NCBI GenBank assembly: GCA_020847275.1 | Contig: JADLCI010000001.1 | Span: 2,540-66,539, forward strand | Source of the DNA: Candidatus Nomurabacteria bacterium | Lineage (GTDB): Bacteria; Patescibacteriota; Minisyncoccia; Phycocordibacterales; JACOZG01 | Length of the DNA stretch: 64,000 bases | Direction: 5' to 3' | Shown here: piece by piece, positions 1 through 52,134 of the stretch | Position numbering within the stretch: the stretch's first letter is position 1 | Layout of the letters: each line of letters starts with the position of its first letter | The notes under the pieces: model-generated | What the model was told of the DNA's origin: nothing | Seen by the model: the letters and a program-made list of their open reading frames with translations, nothing else | Databases searched by the model: none | Position numbers and translations under genes: made by a program

Positions 1-975
1 CATGGCAACCTCCCTGTGGGCAACGAGTAATTCACGCAGAATTTCGGGCAAGCGCTCTGCCCTCTCGTGTGTGGCTAGACTTCTAATTGTTTTCACTTCA
101 TCTGTGCTCAAGTTCTTCAGCCACTCTTCCTGATTATTTTTATCCAAGCGCACCAGCAAGGCGAGCCTAATCTGGCGCAAGAGTAACCTGATCAGAGTTT
201 TAACATCTTGATTTTTCAGGCTACTCGCTCGGACTTTCTCGAGTGCTCGTTCTAAATTCTGATCCAGAATCGCGCCGGCCAGATCCCGCACCAGATGCGC
301 TGGCGGAGCGCCAGTTACCAGCTCGGCTTCGGCGAGAGTAATCTTGTTATCTGCGGAGGCACTCATTGCCTTCTGCAGGAGACCAACAGCGTCACGGAAG
401 GAACCATCGCCGAGAAGCGCAATTAATTCCGCCGCTTCGGTTTCTAATTTGAACTTTTCTGACTTTGCAATCTGAAGCAACAAGGTCTGGATTTCATTCT
501 GACTGGGCTTGCTGAAGGTGAAAGTCTGACAACGAGAAATAATCGTTTCCGGTACTTTATTCAACTCCGTGGTCGCAAAAATGAAGACAACATGCGCCGG
601 CGGCTCTTCCAATGTTTTCAGAAGCGCGTTCCAAGCATCGCGCGTGAGCATATGAACCTCGTCAATCAGGTAAACTTTCCGCGGAGAACGAAAGGGCATC
701 GTGCTTACGCCCTCTCGCAACATGCGAACCTCGTCAATGCCACGATTGGAGGCCCCATCGATTTCGTATAGATCCTCTGGCATCACCTCGAGCTCACTGG
801 CCAATATTCGAGCAACAGAAGTTTTCCCCGTACCCCGAGAGCCGGCGAATAAGTAAGCGTGGGAAACATTATTAATCCGTAATGCTCCCTCCAGCACCCT
901 GATCACCGACTCCTGGCCAATAACTTCGGAAAATTTGCTTGGTCGATATTTACGATAAAGGGCAAGTTCGGACAT
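1..975 (-). CDS. dnaX: DNA polymerase III subunit gamma/tau, N-terminal part (extends beyond window start)
   Basis: Minus-strand translation begins MSELALYRKYRPSKF...HAYLFAGSRGTGKTS with Walker A, DEVHML and the clamp-loader box; ATG at 975 preceded by a GGGGG SD; the ORF runs off the 5' edge of the window. Confidence 0.9.
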   Translation of the reverse strand, partial: MSELALYRKYRPSKFSEVIGQESVIRVLEGALRINNVSHAYLFAGSRGTGKTSVARILASELEVMPEDLYEIDGASNRGIDEVRMLREGVSTMPFRSPRKVYLIDEVHMLTRDAWNALLKTLEEPPAHVVFIFATTELNKVPETIISRCQTFTFSKPSQNEIQTLLLQIAKSEKFKLETEAAELIALLGDGSFRDAVGLLQKAMSASADNKITLAEAELVTGAPPAHLVRDLAGAILDQNLERALEKVRASSLKNQDVKTLIRLLLRQIRLALLVRLDKNNQEEWLKNLSTDEVKTIRSLATHERAERLPEILRELLVAHREVAM

Positions 976-1011
976 TTGCCCCCATTATATAGAAAAACGA
1001 GTATAAAAGAA

Positions 1012-1317
1012 GCCCGCCCCACATTACGTGGAACGGGCTTTCTTGCAGAAACGGCGTAAGTCGAACTAGGTCAAACCACACCCCTTTCTTTAGTTTGTGG
1101 CTACGAACCGTTCGTGGCCAGTGGTCGCCGTGGCTGATCAACCAGCGATCAGCTCGCCGTGCGCGCCGAGGTCAGCGATGATTGGTCTCAAAAAAAGAAT
1201 GAATCTCAGGCTCAAAACAACCACCATAATGAGTCTTCATAAACGACTCCTTCCTGGTTCCCAAAGAACCAAGTGAAAAGAACTGCCCCCAGTGGCTCTG
1301 TCGAACCCTCGACAAAC
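1012..1317 (-). ncRNA. Unassigned ~290-nt transcription unit between dusB and dnaX; candidate small RNA (possibly SRP RNA/ffs) or structured dnaX leader
   Basis: Near-consensus sigma70 promoter on the minus strand (TTGACA-16-TATACT) at 1324-1351. Intrinsic terminator hairpin at 1019-1049 followed by a U-tract. No long ORF, only a 22-codon ORF with an AGGAAGGAG SD. ffs commonly sits upstream of dnaX, but I could not find a clean domain IV GGAA/AGCAG motif. Confidence 0.3.
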
Positions 1318-1323
1318 AAGCCA

Positions 1324-1351
1324 AACTGCGACCAGTATAGCAAGCCTCCAG
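1324..1351 (-). promoter_or_regulatory. sigma70-type promoter (TTGACA-16-TATACT) driving the ncRNA candidate
   Basis: Reverse complement of 1346-1351 is TTGACA and of 1324-1329 is TATACT, with a 16-nt spacer. Confidence 0.45.
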
Positions 1352-1357
1352 AAATTG

Positions 1358-2312: not shown

Positions 2313-3176
2313 CTAAGATTCTAGAAATTTATAAAAAACCTTGTCAGCAAATCGCGCATCTAGGTAGTCTAGCCGACGACCAGACTCGAGATTCTTTCGA
2401 TACTCTTTGACAAAGACCTCCGTACCGAGGGCCACTTTAAAATCGGCAAACAACTTTTCTGGATCAGAATTTAAGTTCAAGAAAACAACGGCATTGTTAG
2501 ACAGAAAGAATTTTAATTCCCCATCTAAACCCAGAGCAACCCGTTCTATTCCCAACCCCAAAACAGACTCAGCTAAAGCTTCCGCCAAGCCTGTTTTAAG
2601 ATCAATCAACTTTTTGAAATCCGTCTCAGCAAGTGGGCGACCACCAATCGGGGTTATCGGCAAAGCTCCCTCAATCACAAATAGTGGTCGACCCAAGAAT
2701 TCCGGTGCGGACGCAAAGGCAAGACCATGCTCATCTAAGAAAAAACAGTTGTCACCACCACCATCACACCAAAAATATTTAGCCTCCCGCTCACTGACAC
2801 TGATTGATAGGAGATTATCCTTCTGCGACACTTTTATCTCCTTAAGATCCGGCAGGGACTGCGACAGGGTGCTGATAATGGTCTCCCGCGGGTAAAAGAA
2901 AATGTTTTTTCGGGGGAGAAGACCAAAATAACTACCAGCCAGAATTTCAGCGGACAGATTTTCAATTTTCTCTGCCTTAGTTGGGCTTGCACCACTAATC
3001 CGAACCTCTTGCAACAGAAATTTGTCCCAATGAGCCAGCCAGAGTATCTCTCCGACAAAGACAAGGAGGAGTGTCAGACGAAAAATAAGTTTAAGTCGAT
3101 AGCGTCGTTTACGTTGAGCTTGCGCCTGCTTCAAAATCCCCGACCGACCAGTGATAATCTGTCGTGACATTGCCAT
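2313..3176 (-). CDS. FtsQ/DivIB-like cell-division protein (N-terminal TM plus POTRA-like region), tentative
   Basis: 287 aa; basic N-terminus, a single TM helix and a periplasmic domain of FtsQ-like size and composition. Confidence 0.4.
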   Translation of the reverse strand: MAMSRQIITGRSGILKQAQAQRKRRYRLKLIFRLTLLLVFVGEILWLAHWDKFLLQEVRISGASPTKAEKIENLSAEILAGSYFGLLPRKNIFFYPRETIISTLSQSLPDLKEIKVSQKDNLLSISVSEREAKYFWCDGGGDNCFFLDEHGLAFASAPEFLGRPLFVIEGALPITPIGGRPLAETDFKKLIDLKTGLAEALAESVLGLGIERVALGLDGELKFFLSNNAVVFLNLNSDPEKLFADFKVALGTEVFVKEYRKNLESGRRLDYLDARFADKVFYKFLES

Positions 3177-3177
3177 T

Positions 3178-5574
3178 CTATAAAATAATCAACTTGCCAC
3201 CCAAGAACTCGATCCGCGTCCCCGCTCCAACCTCACCACTAATTATTCTATCCGCAACAGCCTGCTCAACCTTATCCTGAATAAAGCGGGCCAATGGCCG
3301 AGCACCAAAAACTCGATTGGTTCCGGCGTCGGCCACACGATTAATCAGATCATCATTGAGTTGCAGCTCGATGCCCTGAGTCCTCAATCGGGCAACTAAG
3401 CGATTAAGAAGTAGACGAGCAACCTGAAATAGTTCCGCCCCGACCAGTGGATGGAAGATCACAATCTCATCGAAACGGTTGAGCAACTCCGGCCGGAAAA
3501 GTGACCGTTTGATAAGGTGGTTCACCAACTCATCCCGCGCGGTGCTTGGGTCACGCCCCGCCTCTACCATCTCCCAGATCATCTCGGCGGCGGCATTAGA
3601 GGTCGCGATAAAGATGATATTACGCGTATTGACTCGACGACCAAATGCATCAGAGAAAAACCCTTCGTCCAGAATCTGAAGAAACAAGTTAAGCACCTGC
3701 TGACTGGTCTTCTCAAACTCATCCAAAAGTAGAACCCCGTAAGGGTTCTGCCGTAGAAGATTAGCGAGTATCCCCTGTTTATTTTCGGCAAAAGAGCCAA
3801 TCAGACGATTCAAGGCATCATCTGATTGATATTCCGACATATCTAGCCGCAAAAGCGCCTCCTCGCGCCCGAAAAGTGTCCGCGCTAACGCCTTTGCTGT
3901 TTCCGTCTTACCGACGCCAGTTGGCCCCAAAAAAAGAAAACTGCCGATCGGGCGCCCGCGGTTCGCCGTACCCGCACGACTCCGACGAAGCGCCTGACTA
4001 ATTGCTCGTAAAGCCACCTCCTGGCCGATCACTTGATGTTGTAAATTTTGTTCCAAACTCAATAAAGATTCCCGTTCTAAAACAGAAACCGAACCAGCGG
4101 GGATCTTCGTTTTCTGACTGACAAAGGCCAAGACCTCTTCTCGCCCGATAATCTTCTCCCCACTACTCACCGCCCAAGGCACTAACTCCACCAATAAATC
4201 AAGGGCTCGGTCACTGATTGAATCTGTCTGGAAATATCGTCCAGCACTTTCAACCAAAGAAACAAGGGATTGGTAGGTAAAAAAGATTCCCAGCTTCTTT
4301 TCAAAATTTACCGCCACTTCCTCGAGAAAAATGATTAAACGCGACTGGTCGATTTCTGTCGCACGAATAACCTCGAAACGACGGGCTAATTCGGGCACAC
4401 CAGCAATTGACTGTTGATAGGAATCCGTGTCGACAAGAGCAATAATCGGTAAAATTGCCGCCCCAAGATACGGATCGAGAAGCGAGGTTAATTCGCTGCC
4501 AAGTCTCCGCGCGCCAGCAAGCAAAACAGCGAGATCATCAATTACCAAAATCGTATTACCCGACTTGGCGGCCTCATTCATGATCTGCAAAACTGTCTGC
4601 TCAAAAGTGCCGCGCTCTCGATGGTCAGCAATCAGCAGGGCGGCGTGGAGAAGAACCGGGCGGCGGTGTTCTAGGGCCGGCACTACGAAACCACTCTTAA
4701 TTTCATTCGCCAATTGCCAAATTATATCCATCTTTGACTCCCCTGCGGGCCCAACAATAAGCGCATTTGATTCTTGGCTACGCAGGAGGACATTCTCCAA
4801 CTGTCGAACCTCGTCGCGACGCACCGTGGCGGTCTGCCGAAAGCCACTTGATTGTGGTGCCAGCAATAAATCTTCACTGTAACGATCGAGGACAAAGGTC
4901 TGTCCGAAAGACCAATCCTTAGCCAAACCAGGAATTCTTCCCAAACTCTCACGACTCCACCAGCGCTCGGCAAGAGCCTTGCGCTCAATCTCACTCACCA
5001 CCCAAGCAACCGCGCCAACCAATTCCGGCTGATTGATCTCGTGGCGGAAAAGGAATTTGGCAAAATCTTCATTGTTGGAATAAATCCAGTCCGCCAACTT
5101 GGCCAAGGTTAGCGGTTCAGCGCCCGCGAGAGAGAGGGTGGGCAGATTCTTTTTCTGTGGTCGTGTCTGAAGAAAAGATCGGATCTCCGTATCCATCACC
5201 CCAAGACGTCTTAAAACCAAATTTCCCGTCTTGGATAACATAAAAGCCGTCAGAACATCCTCATCTTTATTTCTCAATCGATACAAAATACGCCCAACCG
5301 TAAAGGTGAAGAGATCCTCACGCCGATAACGATTAGTAATGATGCTAGAAAAATAATAAGAACGGAAAAAAACCTCAAGGAGGTGAAGCATCAGAATTGC
5401 CGTCGCGAGAATAAGCACCAATCCCAACCATCGAGAAGTCTGATCGAGAGACAAGAGCAATGCGAGTGTCATCACCTCCACTACCCAACGAAGAAATCGT
5501 CGGTCGCGACGGGAAATCAGGTTCTCCAAAACAAGAACTGGGTAAAGTCGACTAGATTTTATTCTTTCAAACAT
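3178..5574 (-). CDS. Membrane-anchored Clp/Hsp100-family AAA+ ATPase with degenerate first nucleotide-binding domain
   Basis: 798 aa; two N-terminal TM helices. The D2 domain is intact ([15 protein letters not shown]...LLRLDMSEYQ, sensor-2 region). The D1 Walker A is replaced by GPAGESKM. Confidence 0.7.
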   Translation of the reverse strand: MFERIKSSRLYPVLVLENLISRRDRRFLRWVVEVMTLALLLSLDQTSRWLGLVLILATAILMLHLLEVFFRSYYFSSIITNRYRREDLFTFTVGRILYRLRNKDEDVLTAFMLSKTGNLVLRRLGVMDTEIRSFLQTRPQKKNLPTLSLAGAEPLTLAKLADWIYSNNEDFAKFLFRHEINQPELVGAVAWVVSEIERKALAERWWSRESLGRIPGLAKDWSFGQTFVLDRYSEDLLLAPQSSGFRQTATVRRDEVRQLENVLLRSQESNALIVGPAGESKMDIIWQLANEIKSGFVVPALEHRRPVLLHAALLIADHRERGTFEQTVLQIMNEAAKSGNTILVIDDLAVLLAGARRLGSELTSLLDPYLGAAILPIIALVDTDSYQQSIAGVPELARRFEVIRATEIDQSRLIIFLEEVAVNFEKKLGIFFTYQSLVSLVESAGRYFQTDSISDRALDLLVELVPWAVSSGEKIIGREEVLAFVSQKTKIPAGSVSVLERESLLSLEQNLQHQVIGQEVALRAISQALRRSRAGTANRGRPIGSFLFLGPTGVGKTETAKALARTLFGREEALLRLDMSEYQSDDALNRLIGSFAENKQGILANLLRQNPYGVLLLDEFEKTSQQVLNLFLQILDEGFFSDAFGRRVNTRNIIFIATSNAAAEMIWEMVEAGRDPSTARDELVNHLIKRSLFRPELLNRFDEIVIFHPLVGAELFQVARLLLNRLVARLRTQGIELQLNDDLINRVADAGTNRVFGARPLARFIQDKVEQAVADRIISGEVGAGTRIEFLGGKLIIL

Positions 5575-11975: not shown

Positions 11976-12058
11976 GCCGGAGTGGCGGAATGGCATACGC
12001 ATACGACTCAAAATCGTACGGCCGCAAGGCCTTGTGGGTTCAAGTCCCACCTCCGGCA
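11976..12058 (+). tRNA. tRNA-Leu (anticodon CAA)
   Basis: Cloverleaf with acceptor GCCGGAG/CTCCGGC, anticodon loop CTCAAAA, long variable arm and a GTGGG-TTCAAGT-CCCAC T-arm. Confidence 0.85.
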
Positions 12059-12065
12059 CATCGTT

Positions 12066-12137
12066 GTCCCCGTAGTCTAATGGATAGAACACGGGCCTCC
12101 GAAGCTCGAGATACAGGTTCGATTCCTGTCGGGGACA
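12066..12137 (+). tRNA. tRNA-Arg (anticodon CCG)
   Basis: Acceptor GTCCCCG/CGGGGAC, anticodon loop CTCCGAA, T-arm ACAGG-TTCGATT-CCTGT; 72 nt. Confidence 0.8.
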
Positions 12138-16842: not shown

Positions 16843-19521
16843 TTAGGCCGTAGACACAAGCCGTTTACCATTCGTTCGTAGTGTCCGTTTCTTCAATTCA
16901 ATTACCGGCTCACCATTCTTCATTTCTACCACGAGAACTCCCCCACTCTCGATTTTCCTCCCAATAATAAACTCCGCGACTTGATTAAGAATTTTATTTT
17001 GAATTAAACGCTTGAGCGGACGCACGCCATATTCAGAACTATAACCCTCGCGAGCGAGATAGGCCATTGTCTCCGTTGAGACTTCCAATTTGATCTGCTT
17101 GTGTGCTAAACGCCCCCTCACCAGCTGAAGCTGGATATCCACAATCTCCTTAATCGTCTCGGCCGGTAGCGGGTTGAAGATAATGATGTCATCCAGGCGG
17201 TTCAAGAATTCCGGGCGGAAGTGATTCTTAAGACTTTCCATGATGCGCTGTTTAGTTTCATTGTAATCAGTCTTCGCCGTGCCGTCACCACTAGAGAAAC
17301 CAATCTTTTGAAGTCGTTGGATATACTCACTGCCAATATTGGACGTGAGAATAATAATTGTGTTCTTGAAATTGACGACGCGACCCTTGCCGTCCGTAAG
17401 ACGGCCATTATCCAGGACCTGAAGTAAGATGTTGAAAACTTCCGGATTCGCTTTCTCAATTTCATCGAAAAGTAAAACGGCATAGGGCCGATGACGCACC
17501 GTTTCGGTCAATGACCCGCCCTCTTCGTAACCCACATAACCTGGTGGTGAACCGATAAGTTTGGAGATAGAATATTTCTCCATATATTCACTCATATCAA
17601 TCCGCACCAACGCCTTCTCATCGTCAAACATAAAGTGAGCAAGAGTACGAGCTAATTCGGTCTTACCAACACCGGTTGGGCCAAGCAAAATAAAGGAGCC
17701 AATTGGTCGATCTGGATCACCCACACCCGCGCGTGAACGCTTGACCGCCTCGGCGATTTTCTTAATTGCCTCATCTTGTCCACGAACCCGTTTGCGCAAC
17801 TCATCTTCAATCCGCGTCAGTCTCTGTGATTCTCCCTCCAACATTTTCGTCACCGGAATATGAGTCCAGCGCGCCACCACTTTGGCAATTTCTTCATCCG
17901 TTACTTCTTCCTTCAGAATCCGCCTGGAACTCTGCAGTTTCTTAAGCTTTAATTCCTTGACCTTCAAATCCTTCTCCAGCTGAGGGATTTTGCCATAACG
18001 AATCTCGGCCGCATGAGAGAGGTCGGCCCGCCATTCCGACTGTTCAGCCTCCAGGCGCGCCGTCTCTAAATCACGCTTCACCACTTTGATTTCGGAAATT
18101 ACCTCTTTCTCATTTTTCCACTTTAACTCCAATTCACGGACCTCTTCGCGGAGATCACTAACCTCTTTCTCAATCTTCTTAATCCTGGCCCTAGTTTGTT
18201 TATCATCCTTGAGAGATAGCTCTTTTTTCAATGCCTCCTTCTCAACCTCCAAACGCATAATCTTAGTATCCGTTTCCCCCAAGAGTTCTGGTTTGTTTTC
18301 TAGTTGTAAGCGAAGGGCTGAAGCCGCTTCATCAACCAGATCAATTGCCTTATCGGGCAGAAAGCGATCACTGATGTAGCGGGCAGAGAGCTGGGCCGCG
18401 GCAACAATTGCGCTATCGGTAATATGAACACCATGATGTGACTCGTAACGCTCCTTCAATCCGCGCAAGATCGTAATTGCGTCATCAACTGAAGGTTCTT
18501 CCACATGAACAGGCTGGAAACGACGAGTAAGTGCTTGATCCTTCTCAATATATTTCTGGTATTCCTTAATCGTTGTCGCCCCAATCGCCCGCAACTCACC
18601 TCGCGCCAATGCCGGCTTGAGCATGTTGGAAGCATCAATTGCCCCCTCAGCCGCACCAGCTCCCACAATCGTATGAATCTCGTCGATAAAGAGAATAAAC
18701 TTGTTACCAGAACGTTCTAGTTCTTTCAAAACCCCCTTCAATCGTTCCTCGAATTCACCACGATATTTTGTACCAGCGACAATCAAACCGAGGTCAAGTG
18801 AGACTAGCTCTTTATCTCGTAAAGATTCAGGTACATCATTTTTTGCAATCTTGATTGCTAAACCCTCCGCAATTGCCGTCTTTCCCGTTCCCGCTTCGCC
18901 AATCAGAATCGGGTTATTTTTTGTCCTTCGAGAAAGAATCTCCATCAAGCGTTGAATTTCCTCCTCTCTCCCAATGACCGGATCAAGCTTATCCGCCTTC
19001 GCTAATTCCGTTAGATTTTTTGTAAATTTTTCGATATTACGAAACTTCTTTGACTGGTCTACTTCATGTGTCTGGCTCATCCGCAACTCCTGCAAAACCT
19101 TCAACACCCTTTCCTTTGTCACACGGAAACGGGCCAGAATCTCGTGGGCTTGATTTGGTGTCTCGAGAAGACCAAGCAGAAGATGCTCCGTGGAAACAAA
19201 CTCGTCTTGCAAATTAGCGGCAATTTTTCCGGATGTATCAAAAACTTTCACCAATTCTGGTGTTAGATAAATCTGGTAAGCCGCCGAGAGTACCCCTGTC
19301 TGCTCACTACCCTCAAGACTTTCCACGACATAGTCTGTCAGCATTGCCGTGTCCACCTCAATTTTATCCAAAATGGAAACAAACATACTTTCCTCCTGCA
19401 GAAGAAGAGCGGCCAAGAGATGAACCGGGCCGACCTGATTCTGACCCCGCTCAATAGCGAGTTCATGCGTCTTCCGAATTACCTCTTTCGCTTTCGCTGT
19501 GAAGTTAGAAAATGGTGGCAT
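16843..19521 (-). CDS. clpB: ATP-dependent chaperone ClpB
   Basis: 892 aa; N-domain, D1 ([15 protein letters not shown]), long coiled-coil M-domain, D2 ([15 protein letters not shown]) and the C-terminal sensor. Confidence 0.95.
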
Positions 19522-24234: not shown

Positions 24235-24307
24235 TGGCCTAGTCGCCAAGTGGTAAGGCAAGAGTCTGCAAAACTCTTACGCGGCGGTTCGATTCCGCCC
24301 TAGGCCT
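24235..24307 (+). tRNA. tRNA-Cys (anticodon GCA)
   Basis: Acceptor GGCCTAG/CTAGGCC, anticodon stem AGAGT/ACTCT with loop CTGCAAA, T-arm GGCGG-TTCGATT-CCGCC; CCA is encoded. Confidence 0.85.
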
Positions 24308-24310
24308 CCA

Positions 24311-24394
24311 GCCCGGGTGACGTAATTGGTAGCCGTAACAGACTTAAAATCTGTTGCTCGAAAGGGCGTGTGGGTTCGAGTCCCACCCCGGGCA
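24311..24394 (+). tRNA. tRNA-Leu (anticodon TAA)
   Basis: Acceptor GCCCGGG/CCCGGGC, anticodon loop CTTAAAA, long variable arm, T-arm GTGGG-TTCGAGT-CCCAC. Confidence 0.85.
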
Positions 24395-24415
24395 CCTTGT
24401 TTCATTGAAATTCAG

Positions 24416-24487
24416 GCCCTGTTAGCTCAGTTGGTAGAGCAGTCGCCTCTTAAGCGAACGGTCGGGGGTTCGAATCCCTCACAGGGC
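24416..24487 (+). tRNA. tRNA-Lys (anticodon CTT)
   Basis: Acceptor GCCCTGT/ACAGGGC, D-arm GCTCAGTTGGTAGAGC, anticodon loop CTCTTAA. Confidence 0.8.
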
Positions 24488-24500
24488 ACAGTTTTTACAA

Positions 24501-24584
24501 GCCGAGGTGGCGAAATTGGCAGACGCACCAGCCTTAGGAGCTGGCGGGGGCAACCCCATGGAGGTTCAAGTCCTCTCCTCGGCA
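24501..24584 (+). tRNA. tRNA-Leu (anticodon TAG)
   Basis: Acceptor GCCGAGG/CCTCGGC, anticodon stem CCAGC/GCTGG with loop CTTAGGA, long variable arm. Confidence 0.85.
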
Positions 24585-24713: not shown

Positions 24714-25823
24714 ATGTTTGAGGTAAACTGGGCAAATATCTGGTCAACAACCACTCCATTCCTTTGGTGGTTCGGAATTCCTCTCATCACGGTTTTCCTG
24801 ATACTTCTGGTTAATCTGATGGCAAGGAACGATTTCATCATTGGGTTCGTCCCAGAGGGTCAAATCAAGGCGGTCTTAGCTGGTGATTCGTTACACAAAC
24901 TACTGGTAAATATCGGTGGTTATGATTACGATCGCGAGCTCAGAGAAATTACACCCAGCAGTAAGAAAAAACCATGGAGACCCTTTGGAATTTACTGGAT
25001 TGGCCTACCGCCATTCAAAAGTGTCCTACGTTATCCTTTCTCATGGGTAAAGTGGGATAAGCCGGAAGACTCAGCCCACTTTGCGCTGATTCCGCGGAAT
25101 CGAGAGATTGTCAGTTCCCTTTTCTTCCGGTATCCGTATGGCGTACAGGTCAGGGGCATCAGACTAAAAGGAAACATTGAGGTTGAAATCACACTTGTAG
25201 TCACACTCGAAATAGTTAGACCAGAAACAACCCTATTTCGGATCCAACCAACTGGTAATTGGCTCGGACTCGTTATAGCCAAAGTCGAAGAGGCTACTCG
25301 TGGTTGGGCTGGTGAAAAGGGAAACGAAGGGGAGGAGTTTGATGTTGAAAAACTTCGTTCCTTGGCCGCGAGAGAAGAAGGTGCCGCAGATGACCTGCGA
25401 ACACGAATTATGGAAATGAACGGGCATCCACCCACAGAGGGGTTGCCAGAATCAGCAGACGGCACCAGAAGACTTTGCGGTGTAGACATCATCTCTGTTG
25501 ATTTCCAGGGTTGGAAATTCGTCGACCCGGACGCTGAAAAAGCTTACCAGAGTGAGGAGATTGAGAATCGAGTGGCCGATGGCGTAAGAGCCAAAGCAGA
25601 CGGTGAAGCGGCCCGAATCGGAAAAGTTGGTGACGCCGAAGCAAGGGTCATCGCCGCCAAACTTAACGCCGCAGGTGGTAACCACACCCTGGCCGCGAGC
25701 CTGGCACAAGCAACAGCTCTGCAAGAAACCAATGTCAGAGTCCTGTCTCTTGCTGGTGGGACACCACCAATCAACACCATTCCGGTTGATGGACCAACAG
25801 CAGATGACACAAGGGAAGACTGA
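24714..25823 (+). CDS. SPFH/band-7 (flotillin/YqiK-like) membrane protein
   Basis: 369 aa; SD AGAAGGAGAAT; N-terminal TM, an SPFH beta/alpha core, and a C-terminal Ala/Glu-rich helical region (AEKAYQSEEIENRVADGVRAKADGEAARIG...). Confidence 0.55.
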   Translation: MFEVNWANIWSTTTPFLWWFGIPLITVFLILLVNLMARNDFIIGFVPEGQIKAVLAGDSLHKLLVNIGGYDYDRELREITPSSKKKPWRPFGIYWIGLPPFKSVLRYPFSWVKWDKPEDSAHFALIPRNREIVSSLFFRYPYGVQVRGIRLKGNIEVEITLVVTLEIVRPETTLFRIQPTGNWLGLVIAKVEEATRGWAGEKGNEGEEFDVEKLRSLAAREEGAADDLRTRIMEMNGHPPTEGLPESADGTRRLCGVDIISVDFQGWKFVDPDAEKAYQSEEIENRVADGVRAKADGEAARIGKVGDAEARVIAAKLNAAGGNHTLAASLAQATALQETNVRVLSLAGGTPPINTIPVDGPTADDTRED

Positions 25824-51748: not shown

Positions 51749-52121
51749 TGGTGGAGATGGCGGGAATCGAACCCGCGTGCAAAAGGTTGACCTAAATTGT
51801 TCTACATACTTATCTCACTTTAAATTTTCGCCAACGCGACTCGAAATGAGCCAAACATCGCGCCAGTTAGCATCTTAGTTTTGAATTCGTGCCGATGCGA
51901 TCATGAATTCTAGCTCGCGAGTATAACACCCCTAGCCAGTCAGCAAGCGAGACCGGTAGAGACGCCGAGTTAAGCTAAAGCGAAACTCGGAACAGCGAAG
52001 TACGGTGAAACCGTACCGCCCTGCTTAGCCGTAGTTTTGGCAAGTAGATTTTACCTTTTGATTAACGAGAGTAAGGCGCTCTCGGTATGCCCAAAATGAG
52101 GACCGTCCAATTGTCTAGGCC
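51749..52121 (-). ncRNA. ssrA: tmRNA (SsrA)
   Basis: The 5' end is GGGGAUGAUCGGCCUAGACAAUUGGACGG and the 3' end is GCGGGUUCGAUUCCCGCCAUCUCCACCA (tRNA-Ala-like acceptor with a G3:U70 pair and encoded CCA). An internal tag-like reading frame ends ...AVPSFALA-UAA. It begins 14 nt downstream of the smpB stop. Confidence 0.8.
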
Positions 52122-52134
52122 GATCATCCCCGTT

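Follow-up and report, generated by a model that had tools for sequence, protein, structure and literature searches.

A candidate small-ORF RNA gene with a conserved translation start between dusB and dnaX in a few Patescibacteria genomes

The interval between dusB and dnaX in the window (the whole stretch of DNA analysed, 64,000 nt of a Candidatus Nomurabacteria contig) contains a short unit on the minus strand with a promoter, a small open reading frame and a terminator of its own. We propose that this is an autonomous, accessory and translated small-ORF RNA gene that belongs to neither dusB nor dnaX, a reading to which the sequence comparisons lead us to give about an even chance. The anatomy of the unit, its pattern of conservation, the coding type of its variation and its accessory distribution can all be read directly from the compared genomes. 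It matches no described RNA or protein family; the family is new, although its kind (small-protein mRNA or dual-function sRNA) is a known one, and in the sequences searched so far it is confined to a few Patescibacteria genomes.

Architecture of the unit

The landmarks that define the unit and its neighbours are as follows.

dusB, 2311 to 1358, minus strand; its TGA stop codon lies inside the promoter -35 element
-35 hexamer TTGACA, 1361 to 1356, minus strand; overlaps the dusB stop codon TGA (1360 to 1358)
Extended -10 element TGcTATACT, 1342 to 1334, minus strand; TG at 1342 to 1341 and TATACT at 1339 to 1334
Intrinsic terminator, 1040 to 1003, minus strand; 14-bp stem, 3-nt loop and U tract
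dnaX, start at 975, minus strand

The promoter (TTGACA-16 nt-TATACT, 1361 to 1334, minus strand) has a sigma-70 score of 11/12 with an extended -10, and it ranks first among the seven promoter-like sites in 3.5 kb, for which shuffled sequences predict 3.0 +/- 1.7 sites. The terminator stem (1040 to 1010) contains eight G-C pairs and is followed by CTTTTAT, and this is the sole terminator-like site within 3.5 kb. Transcription is predicted to start at about 1327, which would put the terminator stem about 287 nt, and the end of the U tract about 325 nt, from the first base of the RNA; we infer both transcript ends from these signals. The sequence-only reading had described a promoter and a terminator bracketing about 290 nt of the minus strand, and the measured intervals bear this out. 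It had also noted that the region lacks a long ORF and contains only a 22-codon ORF with a perfect Shine-Dalgarno (SD) sequence, and we find the same: the longest ORFs of the dusB–dnaX gap are only 50–63 aa, all of them alternative frames or extensions, and the 22-codon ORF (1240 to 1172) is preceded by GGAAGGAG 6 nt before its ATG.

Folding of the unit RNA, which had been suggested in the same reading, gives a folding energy well below that of shuffled sequences (z = -4.7), and one of its hairpins (H3, described below) is conserved in four of the five copies of the unit. The opposite strand folds almost equally well (z = -4.2), so that the strand cannot be told from folding energy by itself.

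Homologues, distribution and conservation

A homologous unit is present in only four related Patescibacteria contigs (L107, L001, L109 and L113), always just after dusB, and the recurrence of the promoter, leader, SD and start codon, and terminator at all four loci is more than would be expected by chance. DnaX and DusB assign the window to the Patescibacteria, in the company of Paceibacteria-like metagenome-assembled genomes (MAGs) from groundwater; DusB identity to the window is 91% in L107, about 72% in L109 and 72% in L113, and the L109 and L001 proteins are 98% identical to each other. The window unit matches those of L107, L001 and L109 with E values of 2e-43, 4e-9 and 2e-5, respectively, and an nhmmer comparison of the window with L001 gives E = 1.7e-7. 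L113 was matched by a profile of the window and L001 (E = 4.5e-4) and was not recovered by single-sequence searches.

Other genomes have a different arrangement at this position. In L114 and L118–121 dusB adjoins dnaX directly with no unit between them, and in L108, L110, L111, L124, L115/117 and L122/123 the gap is occupied by other promoter-terminator units, those of L108, L110, L111 and L124 being unrelated to this one. Because there are only four homologues, and other close relatives have either abutting dusB and dnaX genes or different small units, we regard the unit as accessory, and it is rare. Searches of the window and of about 0.9 Mb of retrieved loci turned up no further copies. A metagenome scan for TATGGTGG-N(67-97)-TGATCANCCNCGGCG returned 26 stretches, of which only that in L088 is real, and L088 and L001 are the same contig; a scan of viral contigs with the SD-start-HYGG pattern gave 120 chance matches, none of which fits the family profile, and BLAST against phage and plasmid sequences gave no match to the unit.

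The segments of the unit differ greatly in conservation. As a neutral yardstick we used the four-fold degenerate sites of dusB, which are only 50% identical between the window and L107; the corresponding identities within the unit are as follows.

Leader, 89%
SD spacer, start codon and first eight codons, 83%
Promoter, 80%
Terminator, 80%
GC box to H3, 70%
ORF tail, 60%, with many gaps; looks neutral
H3-to-terminator spacer, 44%; looks neutral

Between lineages the four-fold dusB sites are saturated (27–38% identical), and in spite of this all five copies have kept the TTGACA-16 nt-extended -10 promoter, a leader hairpin (P1), the motif G(U/A)UCUUUY, GGAG-6 nt-start, M-x(2-4)-HYGG, a CUGA stop 0–8 nt before a GC-rich box, and a strong terminator. 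The -35 hexamer TTGACA is identical in the five copies; the -10 element is TGtTATGCT in L107, TGcTATACT in L001 and L109, and TGcTATAGT in L113. Every homologue is closed by its own strong terminator hairpin, and the L001/L109 and L113 hairpins differ in sequence.

The small ORF and evidence for its translation

The translation signals and the peptides predicted from the five copies are listed below.

SD GGAAGGAG, 1254 to 1247, minus strand; 6 nt before the ATG
Small ORF of 22 codons plus TGA, 1240 to 1172, minus strand; encodes MKTHYGGCFEPEIHSFFETNHR
His-Tyr-Gly-Gly (HYGG) codons, 1231 to 1220, minus strand; conserved part of the small ORF
Window peptide, MKTHYGGCFEPEIHSFFETNHR; ATG start
L107 peptide, KTHYGGCLGLRISSIFFNFGLDFGTRAS; GTG start
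L001 peptide, MLVRNHYGGNFATVNTHRNCYQSSHDITMHDGDDASS
L109 peptide, MARRKHYGGVDAKGCELSIKQSSDFSLIVTPATA; called as a gene in the L109 assembly
L113 peptide, MVLTHYGGRPWQVSFFSSGII

The arrangement GGAG-6 nt-ATG/GTG is present in all five copies even though the bases of the spacer differ, and the distance from the start codon to HYGG (6, 6, 12, 12 and 9 nt in the five copies) always keeps the frame, giving a conserved N-terminus of M-x(2-4)-H-Y-G-G. The HYGG block has the form CAY UAY GGY GGY, and all four of its variable sites are third positions with synonymous changes, a distribution expected by chance in 1/495. Variation restricted to C and U would also suit a helix in which these bases pair with G, but the strict 3-nt periodicity would not. 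Between lineages the protein similarity is highest in frame 0 (264, versus 156 and 187). These signals stand in a genome poor in SD sequences: of the 46 large ORFs that the window contains, only 3 begin behind an SD-like motif, so chance is an improbable source of a perfect SD that is also conserved; a -10-like box lies 4–13 nt before the start codon in 18 of the same 46 ORFs, the signature of leaderless transcripts. On this evidence we infer that the 22-codon ORF is translated.

Conservation as protein does not extend to the end of the ORF. The peptide tails show no frame preference, their similarity is not above that of shuffled sequences (73/500), and their lengths of 13–28 codons are as random sequence would give. 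Checked in related genomes, as the sequence-only reading had suggested, the ORF is thus conserved in its SD, start codon and first 6–9 codons, which are kept in a coding pattern, and not in its tail. The window peptide is hydrophilic (GRAVY -0.94), and its highest 15-aa hydropathy is -0.21, with a maximum of 1.39 across the copies. No relatives of the peptides were matched in Pfam or NCBIfam, and a word search of 5.8 billion proteins and an HMMER search of 1.84 billion returned only the L001 peptide itself. A match to a TPR-repeat protein from a peptide database search is spurious, and the likeness of the 'KTH.G' N-terminus to bL35 is too weak to count.

Leader and RNA structure

The putative structural elements of the RNA, all on the minus strand, are listed in transcript order.

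Leader hairpin P1, UGGCU..GUCGA-GGGU-UCGAC..AGCCA, 1323 to 1293, minus strand; predicted fold
Conserved single-stranded stretch CUGGGGGCA-GUUCUUUUCAC, 1292 to 1273, minus strand
Pyrimidine tract UUCUUUUC, 1282 to 1275, minus strand; complementary to the SD
Hairpin P2, UGGUUC-UUUGG-GAACCA, 1271 to 1255, minus strand; caps the tract:SD helix
GC box CCUCGGCGCGC, 1171 to 1161, minus strand; immediately 3' of the stop codon
Palindromic hairpin GCUGAUCG-CUGGU-UGAUCAGC, 1153 to 1133, minus strand; window-specific
3' hairpin H3, GGCCACGAA-CGG-UUCGUAGCC, 1119 to 1099, minus strand; followed by ACAAAC

A hairpin at the position of P1 is found in every homologue with unrelated sequences, such that the structure is kept and the sequence is not. 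Downstream of it, the motif G(U/A)UCUUUY is common to the five homologous copies and to variant units in L115 and L122 (see below), and the helix between the pyrimidine tract and the SD is the only consensus helix that RNAalifold reports in the leader. This pairing is predicted in the fold of the window leader alone and also, with different partners, in L107, L109 and L122, and the ensembles folded from full-length RNAs predict a largely paired SD in each of the five copies. P2 has a counterpart in L001 and L109 (GGUCCA-CGUUU-UGGACC), with one compensatory change of a U-A to a C-G pair, and is missing in L113. The leader thus probably occludes the SD by pairing with the tract, as modelled; this SD-occluding pairing, with its one compensatory pair, is a prediction, and invites a comparison with fourU elements.

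Downstream of the ORF, a box of the form YC(G/U)(G/U)CGGCG lies 0–8 nt past the stop-codon context CUGA in every copy. A long-range helix that would enclose the ORF, formed by CUGGGG (1292 to 1287) and CCUCGG of the GC box, is 93% paired, a value equalled by shuffled sequences in 107/500 cases. The palindromic hairpin at 1153 to 1133 is probably not essential, since it is deleted in L107, the closest relative. In H3, 97% of the cells are paired, with compensatory changes on both sides in four of eight pairs, and only 1/500 shuffles reaches the observed value, with controls slid along the alignment pairing at 18–44%; these helices were read directly and counted on short ungapped alignments, and as the five copies come from only three lineages the covariation statistics are weak. 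H3 occurs in the window, L107, L001 and L113; L109 lacks it. Because its substitutions are compensatory rather than synonymous, we interpret H3 as an RNA element and not as coding sequence. A read-through of the UGA stop, as in SECIS-like systems, was considered and rejected: past the stop codon the frame continues uninterrupted for 74 codons in the window but for only 9–31 in the homologues, and the substitutions in H3 are not synonymous-biased.

The suggestion that the region encodes either another sRNA or a small protein gene is supported for both parts jointly, in that the ORF start is conserved in a coding pattern and parts of the flanking RNA as structure, with the exception of the ORF tail, which is unconserved. 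The two could also be separated, and we considered whether the unit is a purely non-coding small RNA, with the leader and H3 as its functional parts (for example through a base-pairing seed in CUGGGGGCAGUUCUUUUCAC) and an incidental ORF. The leader is the best-conserved segment, H3 covaries, the peptide tail is unconstrained, and the RNA folds well relative to shuffles, all of which would be expected of such an RNA. However, the constant SD spacing, the start codon, the in-frame changes in length and the third-position-only variation of HYGG are hard to explain if the RNA is untranslated, and these translation signals stand in a genome that rarely uses SD sequences. We therefore regard a purely non-coding RNA as unlikely.

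Proposed expression and relationship to dnaX

The small-ORF gene that we favour would be expressed as follows. The near-consensus sigma-70 promoter with its extended -10 would drive a transcript of about 325 nt, with the unit's own intrinsic terminator at its 3' end. In the leader of about 90 nt, P1 would form, the tract UUCUUUUC would pair with the SD, and P2 would cap the resulting helix; with the SD predicted to be paired in this manner, ribosome loading is probably throttled or conditional. When the site is open, ribosomes would translate a frame of 21–37 codons in which only the N-terminus, M-x(2-4)-His-Tyr-Gly-Gly, is constant, with the rest varying freely and kept open until a stop just before the GC-rich box. 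H3 and the terminator would then constitute a ribosome-free 3' domain downstream. As the working product we think a short peptide that begins with the constant HYGG head the most probable; the effector may instead be the act of translating this head, or the RNA. The conserved RNA parts would govern expression and stability of the peptide, as in small-protein mRNAs and dual-function sRNAs, and the unit has the features of such genes: a promoter and terminator of its own, a ribosome binding site and a coding pattern (in the N-terminus only), and RNA structure outside the ORF.

It had also been proposed that the unit could be a leader peptide or attenuator that controls dnaX. The dnaX gene has its own TATAAT at 989 to 984, ending 8 nt before its ATG, and a TATAAT is located 6–12 nt before the dnaX ATG in L001, L107, L108, L111, L113, L114 and L122, with or without the unit. 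Since this is so in every genome examined, dnaX is probably independent of the unit. Moreover, in L001 and L109 a second unit, consisting of a promoter, a 77-aa ORF and a terminator, sits between this unit and dnaX, and together with the dnaX TATAAT this argues against a dnaX leader or attenuator.

A broader form of the idea is that the small ORF is a translated regulatory mini-ORF acting in cis, in which the nascent HYGG segment or a ribosome reaching the stop codon remodels the downstream RNA, either the 3' domain or read-through into the next gene (dnaX). Conservation of only the first 6–9 codons is as in short arrest and leader peptides, the frame stays open through the variable region and stops 0–8 nt before the conserved GC box in every copy, and the SD is predicted to be occluded. 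But the terminator lies at least 130 nt past the stop (132 nt in the window, from the stop codon at 1172 to the terminator stem at 1040), and no alternative terminator or antiterminator hairpin was found for the unit. Further, dnaX is preceded by a -10 box of its own and lacks a leader, the next gene in L001 and L109 is a different unit, and the proposed long-range helix performs no better than shuffles. We consider a regulatory mini-ORF of this type to be a doubtful explanation.

Comparison with known systems

The closest parallels to the small-ORF gene proposed here are dual-function sRNAs and small-protein mRNAs such as Staphylococcus RNAIII/hld, Bacillus SR1/SR1P and E. coli SgrS/SgrT. The unit shares with these a short, strongly promoted and terminator-bounded RNA of a few hundred nucleotides, an ORF of 20–40 codons with a ribosome binding site, and RNA structure outside the ORF. 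It differs from them in having no sequence or Rfam relationship to any of them, in the conservation of only the first 6–9 residues, and in its uncultivated Patescibacteria host.

Short regulatory leader and arrest peptides, such as ErmCL, CatA86L and CmlAL, are similar in that conservation lies within roughly the first 5–10 codons of a mini-ORF behind a structured leader. In contrast to these, the unit has no detectable regulated downstream cistron or alternative hairpin, its ORF continues for 13–28 more codons, and it has its own terminator. RNA thermometers of the FourU and ROSE types also occlude the SD, and in the unit a U-rich tract is likewise predicted to pair with AGGA/GGAG through A-U and G-U pairs; unlike the thermometers, however, the unit is followed by no heat-shock or virulence gene, and a bacterium whose closest relatives were sequenced from groundwater would have no evident reason to sense temperature. 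Bacteriocins and pheromones of the double-glycine type have leader peptides of 15–30 residues with the consensus LSxxELxxIxGG and are accompanied by a C39-peptidase ABC exporter. They resemble the predicted peptides in having a constant N-terminal segment ending in Gly-Gly and a variable tail, and alleles of the unit swap between near-identical genomes; the constant part of the unit peptides is only 7–9 residues, however, and lacks the LSxxELxxIxGG consensus. Ten ORFs of the window, including its eight largest, were compared with Pfam, and none of them encodes a C39 or peptidase-ABC exporter.

Regulation in the Patescibacteria (CPR bacteria) is poorly understood, and to our knowledge hardly any small RNA or micro-protein has been reported from them; a literature search on these subjects found nothing relevant. 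The unit offers a clean and testable example, with precisely predicted ends, a conserved translation start in a mostly SD-less genome, selection on a four-residue motif at the level of its codons, and a hairpin that shows covariation. Nothing in it yet points to an unprecedented mechanism.

Allele exchange at the dusB–dnaX junction

The dusB genes of L001 and L109 are 99% identical, as are their four-fold sites (also 99%). These two genomes are nonetheless separated by a divergent allele tract of about 425 nt, running from the 3' end of dusB through the ORF of the unit, with identical sequence on both sides. Inside this tract the unchanged blocks are the promoter, the leader core, the SD and HYGG. 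L115 and L122 contain a variant unit with GUUCUUUU followed by an SD, an ORF ending in NG, and a GC box; between these two genomes the leader is 87% identical and the region downstream of the ORF 85%, versus only 45% for the ORF itself and 75% for the four-fold sites. From these sequences, the dusB–dnaX junction is evidently a hot spot at which small units are gained and lost and alleles are exchanged.

A separate observation concerns codon content: codons for His, Tyr, Asn and Asp, the queuosine tRNA set, are enriched in the units of L001, L115 and L122 and not in the other copies.

In a more ambitious reading, which we offer tentatively and think improbable, the unit is one allele of a Patescibacteria-specific peptide cassette, with strong transcription, a constant HYGG head, a freely diversifying tail, SD gating and swapping by recombination, that provides a signalling, competition or host-interaction peptide, or else a translation-sensing riboregulator with a new arrest motif. 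In such a cassette the occluded SD would gate expression in a genome that otherwise initiates without SD sequences, and alleles would swap between nearly identical strains. If correct, this would represent a strain-specific peptide of an episymbiotic bacterium, or a riboregulator built on a new arrest motif.

The exchange of alleles is also relevant to the possibility that this is a type I toxin-antitoxin-like module, with a structured mRNA, an occluded SD and a small toxic peptide. The predicted SD occlusion, the strongly structured small mRNA, the patchy accessory distribution and the evidence for allele replacement would each suit such a module. The peptides are hydrophilic, however, with no membrane-like segment at the hydropathies given above, the tail is not conserved, and there is no conserved antisense promoter in the five copies. 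The hydrophilic character and the lack of an antisense promoter lead us to rate a type I toxin as very unlikely. An antitoxin encoded in trans would be conceivable.

Neutral drift is an alternative that we judge highly improbable, with the unit as a decaying remnant of a longer gene or as intergenic filler. The tail and the spacer do evolve at near the neutral rate and the lengths of the ORF look random, but the leader, promoter, SD, start codon, HYGG and terminator have been kept across lineages in which neutral sites are saturated.

Known RNA families and the position upstream of dnaX

Rfam models identify a tmRNA and nine tRNAs in the window, and at the gathering score nothing within 976 to 1357. 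The region 900 to 1450, searched at E<=10, gives chance matches only, with no SRP, 6S, RNase P, T-box or riboswitch family among them, and the same search of the L001 and L113 regions gives no shared family and only chance matches on terminator hairpins. The covariance-model search proposed in the sequence-only reading for SRP, 6S and RNase P RNAs therefore came back without a match even at E<=10.

That reading had raised the possibility that the unit is a divergent SRP RNA, since ffs often occupies just this position ahead of dnaX, and the unit does resemble the SRP RNAs (RF00169/RF01854) in this position and in having the length of the large form. It differs in failing the covariance models, in lacking a domain IV, in being accessory, and in carrying a (predicted) translated ORF. 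As a positive control, RF01854 detects SRP RNA just upstream of dnaX in L025, a Peptococcales MAG (200.5 bits), and in L029, an unclassified bacterium (132.6 bits), so the association of ffs with dnaX holds in these two; no SRP RNA was found beside dnaX in any Patescibacteria locus examined. Given the failure to match in the window, L001 and L113, and the absence of the unit from this junction in close relatives (L114, L118–121), which does not fit an essential RNA, we consider a divergent SRP RNA almost certainly wrong.

A T-box was also considered, because UAUGGUGGU resembles the T-box core, and was rejected because RF00230 has no match at E<=10; the same model finds T-boxes in L026 and L030. 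For this locus, the synteny-based annotation of an RNA upstream of dnaX as SRP RNA is corrected by these comparisons.

Small units at the dusB–dnaX junction

The HYGG unit, a small promoter-to-terminator RNA gene lying on the minus strand between dusB and dnaX, carries a 22-codon ORF, and the frame beyond the UGA of this ORF remains open for 74 codons, across the terminator and into dnaX (window 950..1171, minus strand). We attribute this to chance and reject it as meaningful because the corresponding frames in the homologous units of related loci extend for only 9-31 codons and are not conserved.

Two of the loci with homologous units, L001 and L109, come from genomes in which dusB is 99% identical. 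They differ in a divergent tract of ~425 nt (L001:2015-2440 and L109:3910-4290) that includes the 3' end of dusB together with the HYGG unit, and the sequence on either side is identical; the presence of a divergent allele between identical flanks indicates that recombination has replaced one allele with another. In addition, L109 contains an N-filled gap with a duplicated 58-nt segment at its flanks, which is probably an assembly artefact.

Three further dusB/dnaX loci contain a variant unit:

L115:3265-3627, variant unit
L117, variant unit
L122:3489-4075, variant unit

All three have the same GUUCUUUU-SD (Shine-Dalgarno) leader motif as the HYGG unit in the window, followed by a hypervariable ORF of 27-40 codons that has a terminal ..NG and a stop inside GCUGACAC, with a GC box (a GC-rich motif) downstream. 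To the 3' side of this ORF is a second, conserved ORF of 15 codons (MNSTRGVGPPPTFAQ), preceded by AAAGGAAAGGAG. The variant may be related to the HYGG unit of the window; nhmmer did not detect this relation.

The dusB–dnaX gap of two other loci (L108:3990-4260 and L111:3880-4120) holds another conserved promoter-terminator RNA, distinct from the HYGG unit, with a strong SD (AAAGGAG) followed by a 9-15-codon ORF whose stop position varies and is not conserved. A hairpin of the form GCUCA.UGGAG...CUCCA..UGAGC is conserved, and the RNA looks like a separate small-RNA family. L001 has a second promoter-terminator unit between its HYGG unit and dnaX (L001:2600-2960), and an identical stretch is present in L109; its 77-aa ORF (L001 2658..2891) has no match in Pfam or NCBIfam. 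Finally, ~75 nt directly 3' of dusB in locus L124 (L124:2915-3020) lie between a promoter-like site on one side and, on the other, a GC hairpin with a U tract, and may be a very small RNA.

The dnaX promoter and translation initiation

A TATAAT box lies close to the dnaX start codon:

984..989, minus strand, TATAAT upstream of the dnaX start at 975
L001 ~2985-3003, L114 ~2590-2603 and L122 ~4559-4573, the corresponding regions in relatives

The box is kept 6-12 nt 5' of the dnaX ATG in all relatives examined, which argues for a dnaX mRNA that is probably leaderless and under its own promoter. Similar boxes, ending 4-13 nt ahead of the start codon, are present at 18 of the 46 large ORFs in the window, and SD-like motifs at three; both counts are approximate, as the starts are those of the longest ORFs. 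Minus-strand starts in this survey include:

975, 5574, 7201, 33765, 45594, 55723, 57060 and 59593

Initiation in this host appears to be mostly leaderless or SD-independent. A canonical AGGAG-6-ATG start is found at a single large ORF in the window, that of 369 aa at 24714..25823.

Other genes in the window

11976..12137, plus strand, tRNA gene pair
24236..24584, plus strand, four-tRNA gene cluster
24714..25823, 369-aa ORF following this cluster, no Pfam match
51749..52131, minus strand, tmRNA (RF00023, 123.9 bits, full length)
3178..5574 and 16843..19521, minus strand, two ClpB/AAA_2-type ATPases
2313..3176, 287-aa ORF

The 798-aa ClpB/AAA_2-type ATPase adjoins the dusB operon and has the second AAA module only, with a long N-terminal region lacking Pfam matches. 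The 287-aa ORF that separates this ATPase gene from dusB is conserved among relatives and lacks a Pfam match.
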